Positions 34,863 to 39,033 of a DNA stretch of 64,000 nt are shown here, in pieces. The translations under genes and the position numbers were made by a program. The notes under the pieces are model-generated. The model worked only from the letters and a program-made list of their open reading frames with translations, was not told where the DNA came from and made no database searches. The stretch is from the NCBI RefSeq assembly GCF_041886205.1, contig NZ_CP169029.1. One strand, written 5' to 3'. The DNA is from Escherichia coli (GTDB lineage Bacteria > Pseudomonadota > Gammaproteobacteria > Enterobacterales > Enterobacteriaceae). Numbering within the stretch: position 1 is the first letter of the stretch; the number at the start of each line of letters is the position of its first letter.

Positions 34863-35402
34863 TTAATTAAACCAGCTGTCCGATTTGTTCTCTTCTGCTT
34901 TGCCCACGCTTTTCATCAGATCGCGACCGCCTTCAGTCATATTTCTGTTGGCGTCAGCTTCAGATTGCACCACATCGGTTTGCGCAGCTTTGTGCTTCAG
35001 TTCCTGATCGATAAATTCGTTTTCTCGCTTAACGCGGGCTTCTTCTTTCGCCAGCGCCAGTTTTTGTTTCTGAATCTCTAAGCTGCGTAGCTCATCTTCA
35101 TAACTTTGATCGCGTTTTTTGTCCGCAGAGGCTTCGGCGTCCAGTTTATCCTGACGAGCTTTCTTATTTGCTGCTGCCGTGGCCGCTCTTTTGTTAGCGG
35201 CGGCCTGGGCATTTGCGCGACGTTGCTTCTCTTGCTGGATTTCCCTGTTGCGCTCCGCGACCCATTCGTCATGCTGCCTTTGCTCTTCATTTTTACCTTG
35301 CTGTTCCGCTTCTGCGACAGCAGAGAGTTGATCCTGCAATGATGAGGCGATAGCCGGATAGCTTAAGGAGGCCAAGATGGCGCAAAGAAAAACTTTCTTC
35401 AT
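34863..35402 (-). CDS. yfgI: secreted Lys/Glu/Ala-rich coiled-coil protein YfgI
   Basis: 179 aa, signal peptide MKKVFLCAILASLSYPAIA, charged low-complexity repeats. Confidence 0.75.
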   Translation of the reverse strand: MKKVFLCAILASLSYPAIASSLQDQLSAVAEAEQQGKNEEQRQHDEWVAERNREIQQEKQRRANAQAAANKRAATAAANKKARQDKLDAEASADKKRDQSYEDELRSLEIQKQKLALAKEEARVKRENEFIDQELKHKAAQTDVVQSEADANRNMTEGGRDLMKSVGKAEENKSDSWFN

Positions 35403-36246: not shown

Positions 36247-36438
36247 CTAACGTTGTACCGGTGATTCGACAGAGAGTGTGGATTGCTGAGCTTCTTTTTT
36301 GCTCTGATGGTGCTGCCAGGCACCGACGGACGAGTAGATAAAACGGCCAAAGAAGAAGATAAAGCTGATGAGCAGTACGATACGGGTCATGCGACTGTTA
36401 AATCGGTGTCGTTTTCGCATACTGGTTGCCTGACTCAC
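36247..36438 (-). CDS. yfgG: small membrane protein YfgG
   Basis: 63-aa ORF with one hydrophobic segment, in the conserved position between yfgH and pdeF. Confidence 0.55.
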   Translation of the reverse strand: MSQATSMRKRHRFNSRMTRIVLLISFIFFFGRFIYSSVGAWQHHQSKKEAQQSTLSVESPVQR

Positions 36439-36648
36439 AAAAGGTTCCTTGAAGTATGTCCCACGCTGTGGACGGTACTTACATTAAGGCACAACAGGAC
36501 AAAATGGTCAATTCTTCGTTATGTAAAAAAGCGTCAGTGGATACATATTTTAATGTTATGGAAGTTAATTTAATTATTTACAATGATGATGTAATAATGA
36601 TGAATTAACATGATAAACGTAATAATTCATTAATCAGGGTTATTTTGT

Positions 36649-36662
36649 TTGATATATATCAA
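36649..36662. promoter_or_regulatory. perfect FNR box TTGAT-atat-ATCAA upstream of pdeF (yfgF)
   Basis: Exact match to the FNR consensus, read directly; about 130 bp upstream of the pdeF ATG. pdeF is reported to be anaerobically (FNR) induced. Confidence 0.6.
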
Positions 36663-36789
36663 TTGGAACTTTCATATGACACTTAGAATCAATGCTCTCT
36701 ATAGTGATGAATAATCATCATTCGAAGTCAGGTGGGATGCCTGTCTGAATACACCTCCTTCAGGATGTGGGGGATTCTGCTGAGCATCT

Positions 36790-39033
36790 ATGAAACTGAA
36801 TGCAACTTATATAAAAATACGTGATAAATGGTGGGGGCTTCCGCTGTTCCTGCCTTCTTTAATCTTGCCCATTTTCGCTCACATTAATACTTTTGCGCAT
36901 ATTTCTTCCGGTGAGGTTTTTCTCTTTTATCTGCCTTTGGCACTGATGATCAGCATGATGATGTTTTTCAGCTGGGCGGCATTGCCAGGGATCGCCTTAG
37001 GGATTTTTGTCCGCAAATATGCAGAGCTTGGTTTTTACGAAACGCTCTCATTAACGGCTAATTTTATTATCATTATCATTCTCTGTTGGGGTGGTTACAG
37101 GGTCTTTACTCCCCGGCGTAACAACGTTTCACATGGTGATACCCGTTTAATTTCCCAGCGTATATTCTGGCAGATTGTGTTTCCTGCAACGCTGTTTCTG
37201 ATACTTTTTCAGTTTGCTGCGTTTGTAGGATTACTGGCGAGCAGAGAAAATCTGGTCGGCGTCATGCCTTTTAACCTCGGGACCTTAATCAATTATCAGG
37301 CCTTACTGGTGGGCAATCTGATTGGTGTCCCGCTGTGCTACTTCATCATTCGTGTAGTGCGAAATCCATTTTATTTACGTAGCTATTATTCGCAATTAAA
37401 ACAGCAGGTTGATGTCAAAGTCACAAAAAAAGAGTTCGCACTCTGGCTACTGGCACTAGGTGCTTTACTGTTGCTGTTATGCATGCCGTTAAATGAAAAA
37501 AGCACAATTTTTAGCACCAATTATACCTTGTCATTATTGCTGCCCCTGATGATGTGGGGAGCGATGCGCTATGGGTATAAGTTGATTTCGCTGCTCTGGG
37601 CGGTCGTGCTGATGATCAGCATCCACAGCTATCAAAATTACATTCCCATTTATCCTGGCTATACCACTCAGCTGACCATAACCTCCTCCAGTTATCTGGT
37701 ATTCTCTTTTATTGTCAATTATATGGCTGTACTGGCAACCCGTCAGCGAGCGGTAGTCAGACGCATTCAGCGACTTGCGTATGTGGACCCGGTGGTTCAT
37801 CTGCCAAATGTTCGCGCCCTGAATCGCGCGTTGCGTGATGCCCCCTGGTCTGCGCTTTGTTATTTACGCATCCCTGGCATGGAAATGCTGGTTAAAAACT
37901 ATGGCATCATGCTGCGGATTCAATACAAGCAAAAACTTTCTCACTGGCTGTCACCCTTGCTGGAACCGGGTGAAGATGTTTATCAGCTTTCGGGTAACGA
38001 TCTCGCGCTGCGACTGAATACAGAATCGCACCAGGAGCGCATTGCCGCACTGGATAGCCATCTCAAGCAATTTCGTTTCTTTTGGGATGGCATGCCGATG
38101 CAACCGCAGATTGGCGTCAGTTACTGCTATGTGCGCTCGCCAGTGAATCATATCTACCTGCTGCTGGGAGAGCTAAATACGGTCGCCGAACTTTCCATCG
38201 TGACCAACGCCCCGGAAAATATGCAGCGTCGCGGGGCAATGTATTTGCAACGCGAATTGAAAGATAAAGTCGCGATGATGAATCGGCTACAGCAGGCGCT
38301 GGAACACAACCATTTTTTCCTGATGGCCCAGCCGATTACCGGTATGCGTGGTGATGTTTACCATGAAATTCTTCTGCGCATGAAAGGTGAGAATGATGAA
38401 CTGATCAGCCCCGATAGCTTCTTGCCGGTCGCGCACGAATTTGGTTTATCGTCGAGTATCGACATGTGGGTCATTGAGCATACGCTGCAATTTATGGCTA
38501 AAAACAGAGCGAAGATGCCCGCTCACCGTTTTGCTATTAATCTGTCTCCAACCTCGGTATGTCAGGCGCGTTTTCCTGTTGAAGTCAGTCAACTGCTGGC
38601 TAAATATCAGATTGAAGCGTGGCAACTTATTTTTGAAGTCACCGAAAGTAATGCTCTGACCAATGTTAAGCAGGCGCAAATCACCTTGCAGCATCTTCAG
38701 GAATTAGGCTGCCAGATTGCGATTGATGATTTCGGCACCGGCTACGCCAGCTATGCGCGGCTTAAAAATGTGAATGCCGATCTGCTTAAAATTGACGGCA
38801 GTTTTATCCGCAATATTGTGTCAAATAGTCTGGATTATCAGATTGTGGCGTCGATTTGCCACCTGGCGCGAATGAAGAAAATGCGGGTAGTGGCAGAGTA
38901 CGTTGAAAACGAAGAGATCCGCGAGGCGGTGCTCTCTTTGGGGATCGATTATATGCAGGGTTATCTTATTGGTAAGCCGCAACCGTTAATTGATACGCTG
39001 AATGAAATCGAACCCATTCGCGAAAGTGCCTGA
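36790..39033 (+). CDS. pdeF: cyclic-di-GMP phosphodiesterase PdeF (MASE1 - degenerate GGDEF - EAL)
   Basis: 747 aa; N-terminal polytopic membrane domain; EAL-domain motifs (EVTE, DDFGTGYAS, EYVE) at the C-terminus. Confidence 0.9.
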   Translation: MKLNATYIKIRDKWWGLPLFLPSLILPIFAHINTFAHISSGEVFLFYLPLALMISMMMFFSWAALPGIALGIFVRKYAELGFYETLSLTANFIIIIILCWGGYRVFTPRRNNVSHGDTRLISQRIFWQIVFPATLFLILFQFAAFVGLLASRENLVGVMPFNLGTLINYQALLVGNLIGVPLCYFIIRVVRNPFYLRSYYSQLKQQVDVKVTKKEFALWLLALGALLLLLCMPLNEKSTIFSTNYTLSLLLPLMMWGAMRYGYKLISLLWAVVLMISIHSYQNYIPIYPGYTTQLTITSSSYLVFSFIVNYMAVLATRQRAVVRRIQRLAYVDPVVHLPNVRALNRALRDAPWSALCYLRIPGMEMLVKNYGIMLRIQYKQKLSHWLSPLLEPGEDVYQLSGNDLALRLNTESHQERIAALDSHLKQFRFFWDGMPMQPQIGVSYCYVRSPVNHIYLLLGELNTVAELSIVTNAPENMQRRGAMYLQRELKDKVAMMNRLQQALEHNHFFLMAQPITGMRGDVYHEILLRMKGENDELISPDSFLPVAHEFGLSSSIDMWVIEHTLQFMAKNRAKMPAHRFAINLSPTSVCQARFPVEVSQLLAKYQIEAWQLIFEVTESNALTNVKQAQITLQHLQELGCQIAIDDFGTGYASYARLKNVNADLLKIDGSFIRNIVSNSLDYQIVASICHLARMKKMRVVAEYVENEEIREAVLSLGIDYMQGYLIGKPQPLIDTLNEIEPIRESA

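Follow-up and report, generated by a model that had tools for sequence, protein, structure and literature searches.

The known FNR operator of the Escherichia coli pdeF (yfgF) promoter and its fixed spacing to the -10 hexamer across genera of the Enterobacteriaceae

The spacer between the divergent genes yfgG and pdeF of Escherichia coli contains a perfect match to the FNR consensus sequence, which raises the question of whether this box is a working operator, which of the two genes it would serve, and whether it lies at a functional distance from a transcription start. We analysed the box within a stretch of 64,000 nucleotides (the window), whose numbering is used throughout (Table 1). The window comes from the E. 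coli chromosome: with 901 bp around the site as query, matches of at least 95% identity are obtained in 5423 of 5426 complete E. coli genomes, and the features under these matches are annotated yfgG and pdeF. The gene order is guaA (+), yfgI (-), yfgH (-), yfgG (-, 36247-36438), pdeF (+) and ppx (-). PdeF, still called YfgF after the older gene name yfgF in much of the literature cited below, is a protein of 747 amino acids with MASE1 and EAL domains (Pfam), and RefSeq annotates the same protein sequence as pdeF with 100% identity. The box lies within the 351-bp divergent spacer (34% GC), directly downstream of a tract of still lower GC content, and the divergent arrangement of the two genes is kept in all genera examined.

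Table 1. Position, strand and character of the features discussed in the yfgG-pdeF region (window numbering).
Feature	Position	Strand	Remarks
yfgG promoter TTGACC-17-CTTAAT	36475-36511	-	TSS ~36475
AT-rich tract, 22.5% GC	36520-36648	.	directly upstream of the box; likely bound by H-NS/StpA
FNR box TTGATATATATCAA	36649-36662	.	full consensus (10/10); centre at -41.5 in the pdeF promoter; ChIP-listed; conserved
Second sigma-70-like motif ATGACA-18-TATAGT	36676-36705	+	10/12; possible FNR-independent basal promoter
-10 hexamer TAGAAT	36684-36689	+	21 nt after the box; named in PMC3718329; TAnAAT in 14 + 49/49 loci
Inferred pdeF 5' leader, ~93 nt	36697-36789	+	TSS ~36697 derived from the published -41.5
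Leader block 1 CAGGUKGGAUGCCUG	36729-36743	+	invariant; GGA-loop hairpin
Hairpin 2	36754-36773	+	CCC/GGG core, variable flanking pairs, GGA in loop
Leader block 2 GCAUCUAUG	36784-36792	+	invariant; includes the start codon
pdeF (yfgF) CDS	36790-39033	+	MASE1-(degenerate GGDEF)-EAL c-di-GMP phosphodiesterase; regulated gene

Other features of the locus are of minor interest here. An open reading frame of 50 amino acids (36456-36608, + strand) lies inside the spacer and overlaps the promoter and 5' region of yfgG. It is annotated by PGAP as a hypothetical protein (WP_000017552.1) in some strains and is unannotated in MG1655; it shows weak translated similarity in other genera over about residues 9-35, a similarity that may simply reflect conserved yfgG promoter DNA. 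Across the pdeF promoter, strain LHM10-1 has the same sequence as the window (100% identity). To the left of yfgH, on the yfgI side (locus L001, positions 1-2203), this strain has a DUF5384 (yfgI-like) gene that is cut by a frameshifted ISEc52 and a truncated Tn3-family transposase; at the yfgI position the window has an intact open reading frame of 179 amino acids (34863-35402).

The initial annotation had described the box as a complete FNR consensus about 130 bp from the pdeF start codon, and both statements are borne out. The sequence is a palindrome that matches TTGAT-N4-ATCAA at all 10 specified positions, and a scan of both strands found no other perfect match in the 64 kb. Its centre (36655.5) lies 134.5 bp upstream of the ATG and its end 127 bp upstream. 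Perfect sites are expected at 0.10 per window, and at least one occurred in 10 of 100 dinucleotide-preserving shuffles, so that the perfect match by itself is only modestly surprising (about p = 0.1). No other FNR-like site with up to two mismatches was found within 450 bp upstream of the pdeF ATG, nor any other site with fewer than three mismatches within the yfgG-pdeF spacer.

Published work identifies the box. The yfgF promoter was characterised by Lacey, Partridge and Green (Microbiology 156:2873, 2010), and the passage of Lacey et al. 2013 (PMC3718329) that restates this study describes an FNR-dependent promoter of class II with a box at -41.5, a -10 element TAGAAT and maximal expression under anaerobic conditions. 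The K-12 promoter described there and that of the window are the same locus, with the same 14-bp box and the same -10 hexamer, and across 240 bp of promoter and leader MG1655 differs from the window by one base (36667, A in the window and T in MG1655). The anaerobic expression of PdeF, which had been mentioned when the site was first noted, agrees with what this passage reports, and the comparison with published pdeF promoter data proposed at that time leads to this very box at -41.5.

Independent genome-wide data agree. Myers et al. 2013 (PMC3688515) list the exact 14-mer as a predicted FNR site ('yfgF/yfgG', PatSer score 16.08) under an FNR ChIP-seq peak (Table S6), and their coordinate, 2627088 in U00096.2, converts to the box as seen in NC_000913.3. 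The peak was called by MOSAiCS, NCIS and CisGenome from ChIP-seq and by CMARRT from ChIP-chip (Table S5), the immunoprecipitation used an FNR-specific antibody and a delta-fnr control, and the target assigned to the peak is yfgF (Table S9). In RegulonDB-type curation FNR is likewise an activator of yfgF under anaerobiosis (PMC4207228). Neither yfgF nor yfgG is mentioned in the supplement of a Shigella FNR RNA-seq paper. The box is therefore the already characterised FNR operator of the pdeF promoter, known since 2010-2013.

The published position also fixes the geometry of the promoter in the window. With the box centred at -41.5, +1 falls on 36697 (in MG1655 v3 coordinates about 2629031, minus strand) and the ATG 93 nt downstream, which accounts for the long leader or upstream start that had been anticipated from the distance between box and gene. 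The distance of -41.5 restated in PMC3718329 is the canonical class II position and hence a functional one. The figure of -41.5 rests on a restatement by the same laboratory, and a start at 36697 places TAGAAT at -13 to -8, where the textbook position would be -12 to -7, so that the true box centre could be -40.5. The exact start base in the window, near 36697, is a prediction. A generic scan for -35/-10 pairs did not call this promoter, as is to be expected where a -35 is lacking: the -10 element stands at the matching distance, the activator site takes the place of a -35 hexamer, and the 21-nt spacing between box and -10 is invariant in all 63 orthologous sequences.

This is the build of the canonical class II FNR promoters, such as narG, nirB and dmsA, with a site near -41.5, and yfiD with a site at -40.5. 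The pdeF promoter shares with them a consensus box over the -35 region, the lack of a recognisable -35 element and a good -10 element about 21-22 nt after the box, but differs from them in that its output is unusually conditional.

We also noted variation within E. coli between the box and the -10 element. A common A/T polymorphism occurs at 36667, at about -30. In strain L73 (NZ_CP033378.1) the FNR box and the -10 hexamer are separated by an IS1 element (IS1X2; positions 1033-1800 of locus L081, corresponding to 36665-36673 of the window), whose insertion duplicated 9 bp of target sequence (GGTACTTTC) and shifts the box by about 0.8 kb from the promoter. In this natural variant pdeF is expected to be uncoupled from FNR.

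The conservation of the box was determined at two phylogenetic depths. Among the 5426 complete E. coli genomes, 5372 contain an exact match of 28 nt or more to a 30-mer that covers box and flanks (36637-36666). The A allele of the window at 36667 is found within an exact 30-mer in 3787 of the 5426; this second 30-mer spans the polymorphism, which lies outside the box, whereas the first one ends at 36666.

For other species we used a protein-based scan of one genome per species, which returned full-length pdeF orthologues with 57-97% protein identity from other Escherichia, Enterobacter, Phytobacter, Kluyvera and a further Enterobacteriaceae genome, with usable upstream sequence at 14 loci. In all 14 the box is present with no or one mismatch at -124.5 to -143.5 from the ATG, and TAGAAT or TAAAAT follows exactly 21 nt after it, with unrelated sequence in between. 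Metagenomic contigs were scanned with a DNA pattern keyed only on two blocks of the leader (see below), which gave 60 loci with 51 distinct upstream sequences, all of them followed by a PdeF-like N-terminus. In each of the 49 with enough upstream sequence the box stands at -124.5 to -142.5 with no more than one mismatch, and TAnAAT follows it at exactly 21 nt. Since these loci were not selected on the promoter, they lend independent support to a constrained distance between box and -10. Over the genomic and metagenomic loci the half-sites are retained but the central N4 differs, variants including ATAT, TTAA, TTAG, TTAT, TTGT, ATGC, GTGC, TCAT, TCAC and GTAT.

Taken together, we are highly confident that FNR acts on pdeF/yfgF through this box, the operator of an FNR-dependent promoter of class II in which the activator overlaps the -35 region. 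Occupancy by FNR, dependence on it and the position of -41.5 are published; the conservation of the box and of its spacing comes from the present analysis. In the mechanism we propose, dimeric [4Fe-4S]-FNR would bind the palindrome centred at -41.5 when oxygen is lacking, and the bound FNR would replace the -35 element and contact RNA polymerase, which would recognise the -10 hexamer TAGAAT. Transcripts would begin near 36697, with some 93 nt of leader before pdeF. Oxygen would destroy the cluster, FNR would leave the site and the promoter would fall silent.

At this site the sensing of oxygen by FNR is coupled to the turnover of c-di-GMP by PdeF, and thereby to motility, remodelling of the cell surface and tolerance of peroxide in anaerobic E. 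coli. This FNR-PdeF link was established in 2010-2013 and its confirmation adds no new biology. What is added here is a broad phylogenetic footprint, in which the arrangement of the class II promoter (box, 21 nt, TAnAAT) does not change between genera of the Enterobacteriaceae.

Promoter output would be further conditioned by growth phase, temperature and nucleoid proteins. In the 2010 study, expression of yfgF was reportedly greatest in stationary phase and at 28 C. In exponential anaerobic cultures in glucose minimal medium FNR is bound at the site, yet yfgF mRNA shows no FNR-dependent change (PMC3688515 Table S9). In a double mutant lacking hns and stpA the average of the FNR peak rises significantly, from 0.35 to 1.68 (PMC3688515 Table S7), and only in this mutant is yfgF O2-dependent, with a value of 0.23 (PMC3688515 Table S11) that we read as aerobic/anaerobic because known anaerobic genes in that table have values below 1. 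The yfgG-pdeF spacer is also flagged 'HNS' by Shimada et al. (PMC3946193). Together with the AT-rich tract upstream of the box, these data suggest, by inference only, that the nucleoid proteins H-NS and StpA damp both the promoter and its occupancy by FNR, and that extra conditions are needed for output.

Other readings of the box were weighed against this evidence. That the box is an AT-rich inverted repeat thrown up by chance in a spacer of similar composition, and regulates nothing, is extremely unlikely. A perfect match does turn up in about 10% of shuffled 64-kb windows, the surrounding DNA (22-34% GC) favours palindromes rich in T and A, and many high-scoring genomic FNR sites are 'silent' (Myers et al., PMC3688515). 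Against this stand the FNR ChIP data at the site, the FNR dependence of the promoter as restated in PMC3718329, and the half-sites and 21-nt spacing that are kept in every orthologous locus examined, in spacers that otherwise cannot be aligned. Nor is there much to recommend CRP, or another protein of the CRP/FNR family, as the factor that binds instead of FNR, which we consider scarcely credible. The palindromes bound by CRP and by FNR are related and equally spaced, and, read from the sequence, TTTGA-N6-TCAAT agrees with TGTGA-N6-TCACA at 7 of 10 positions; but the half-sites TTGAT/ATCAA are of the FNR-specific form and not GTGA/TCAC, the ChIP relied on an FNR-specific antibody with a delta-fnr control, and expression is FNR-dependent.

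The other two readings concern the gene served and the promoter used. The box could serve yfgG, or both genes, rather than pdeF alone, which we hold to be very unlikely. The divergent arrangement is kept in all genera, but being conserved everywhere, synteny has no power to decide the target. yfgG mRNA is about 2.2-fold higher anaerobically in the wild type (PMC3688515 Table S12, where 0.45 is read as aerobic/anaerobic), and the strongest sigma-70 and sigma-S signals of the spacer are those of yfgG. The strong anaerobic sigma-70 ChIP peak published at 2627279 (v2 coordinates) corresponds to about 36471 and fits the yfgG promoter, whose start at 2627275 (v2; Peano et al., PMC4447067) maps to 36475; that the only strong sigma-70 peak in the spacer is that of yfgG counts against the FNR-driven pdeF promoter. 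On the other side, the box lies about 180 bp upstream of the yfgG start (near -180.5), well beyond the usual class I positions, its distance to the yfgG start codon differs between genera (about 214-242 bp) whereas that to the pdeF -10 never changes, a look through the file with the FNR-dependent operons of Table S8 (PMC3688515) turned up neither gene name, and Myers et al. assign yfgF as the target (PMC3688515). The fixed spacing to the pdeF -10, the variable distance to yfgG and a position near -180.5 for the latter together lead us to conclude that the target is pdeF. It is also unlikely that pdeF is transcribed mainly from an overlapping, FNR-independent sigma-70 promoter with a start near 36712, FNR about 57 bp upstream being neutral or inhibitory. 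The motif ATGACA-18-TATAGT scores 10/12 in the generic promoter scan and was assigned to yfgF as a constitutive RpoD promoter (Shimada et al., PMC3946193), and the lack of an FNR-dependent change of yfgF mRNA in glucose minimal medium (PMC3688515) would fit it. The assignment, however, is a sequence prediction inside a SELEX peak with no mapped start, the motif is absent outside Escherichia whereas box and TAnAAT are universal in the loci examined, and FNR-dependent anaerobic activation is published, as restated in PMC3718329. Not being conserved, the motif is taken as at most an additional basal promoter beside the FNR-dependent one.

As to yfgG itself, its promoter also coincides with a published sigma-S ChIP peak, and yfgG and yfgJ are both about 2-fold higher anaerobically in the wild type, apparently independently of FNR.

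Downstream of the FNR-dependent promoter the leader of pdeF is conserved as well. Its 3' two-thirds (36729-36792) are strongly conserved across genera of the Enterobacteriaceae, and in the protein-selected set two blocks are invariant in spacers that are otherwise unalignable between genera; the metagenomic leaders were selected by requiring both blocks, so that their invariance there is circular. The leader has no purine-rich Shine-Dalgarno sequence. A search of Rfam with the spacer and leader gave no match, only chance-level hits with E above 1.

Two alternative structures can be drawn for the first block. RNAalifold predicts a hairpin with a CAGGU/GCCUG stem and the loop K-GGA-U (hairpin 1), while folds of single sequences mostly prefer to pair U-GGAUGC with GCAUCUA directly 5' of the AUG, in a long-range helix that encloses a second hairpin. 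Hairpin 1 and the long-range helix are mutually exclusive; the bases of both are invariant, so that covariation offers no means of deciding for one or the other.

Hairpin 2 is better suited to comparison, with stem variants CCUCC/GGGGG, CCCUU/AAGGG, CCCAC/GUGGG, ACCCA/UGGGU and AUACCC/GGGUAU. On a MAFFT alignment it is paired in 74%, and two pairs are changed on both sides. The GGA lies 25-29 nt from the AUG in 45 of 45 distinct sequences. When the fold was constrained to leave this GGA unpaired, at least four enclosing pairs formed in all 45, against 65% of shuffles (mean z-score -1.7); in a test of the longest hairpin the GGA was in the loop in 22 of 45, a count blurred by competing pairings rich in G-U. 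Taken as a whole, the E. coli leader shows no unusual stability (z = -0.45).

The arrangement recalls CsrA/RsmA-type leaders, with which it shares two GGA motifs; those of the pdeF 5' UTR stand about 27 nt apart, at about 36738-36740 and 36764-36766, and each can be presented in a hairpin loop. Unlike in those leaders, neither GGA overlaps a Shine-Dalgarno sequence or the start region; when the long-range helix forms instead, the first GGA is base-paired. The cultures of the E. coli CsrA CLIP-seq study were reportedly aerobic, a condition in which yfgF is said to be poorly expressed; yfgF/pdeF is absent from those of its supplements that were searched, and we found no link between yfgF/STM2503 and CsrA in the literature searched.

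We raise, tentatively and as the less probable case, that the leader, some 93 nt long, might act as a so far undescribed cis-regulatory RNA and gate the translation of pdeF after FNR-driven transcription. It is possible that pairing of GGAUGC (about 36738-36743) with GCAUCU (36784-36789) directly 5' of the AUG would occlude the ribosome-binding region, and the architecture could suit binding of CsrA or a switch controlled by an sRNA or by structure. Alternatively, the CAGG-N7-CCTG palindrome may act as an operator at the DNA level. If true, gating in the leader could explain how FNR binds with no rise in yfgF mRNA or output in some conditions. The present analysis also points to a long leader under strong constraint, which may carry a second, post-transcriptional layer of control.

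The 5' end of the leader has features of its own. Positions 36705-36720, about +9 to +24, hold a perfect inverted repeat (TGATGAATAATCATCA) that is specific to Escherichia; a Fur box at this place was considered and rejected, with about 12 of the 19 positions of the Fur consensus matching by eye. At about +5 to +30 a stem-loop of variable sequence, formed in E. coli by this repeat, recurs across genera (mean z -1.2), which suggests a conserved 5'-proximal hairpin, for example an mRNA stabiliser, an attenuator or an operator. At the same place in the leader, Kluyvera has an unrelated stem-loop, CCGCG-N13-CGCGG, followed by a run of U.
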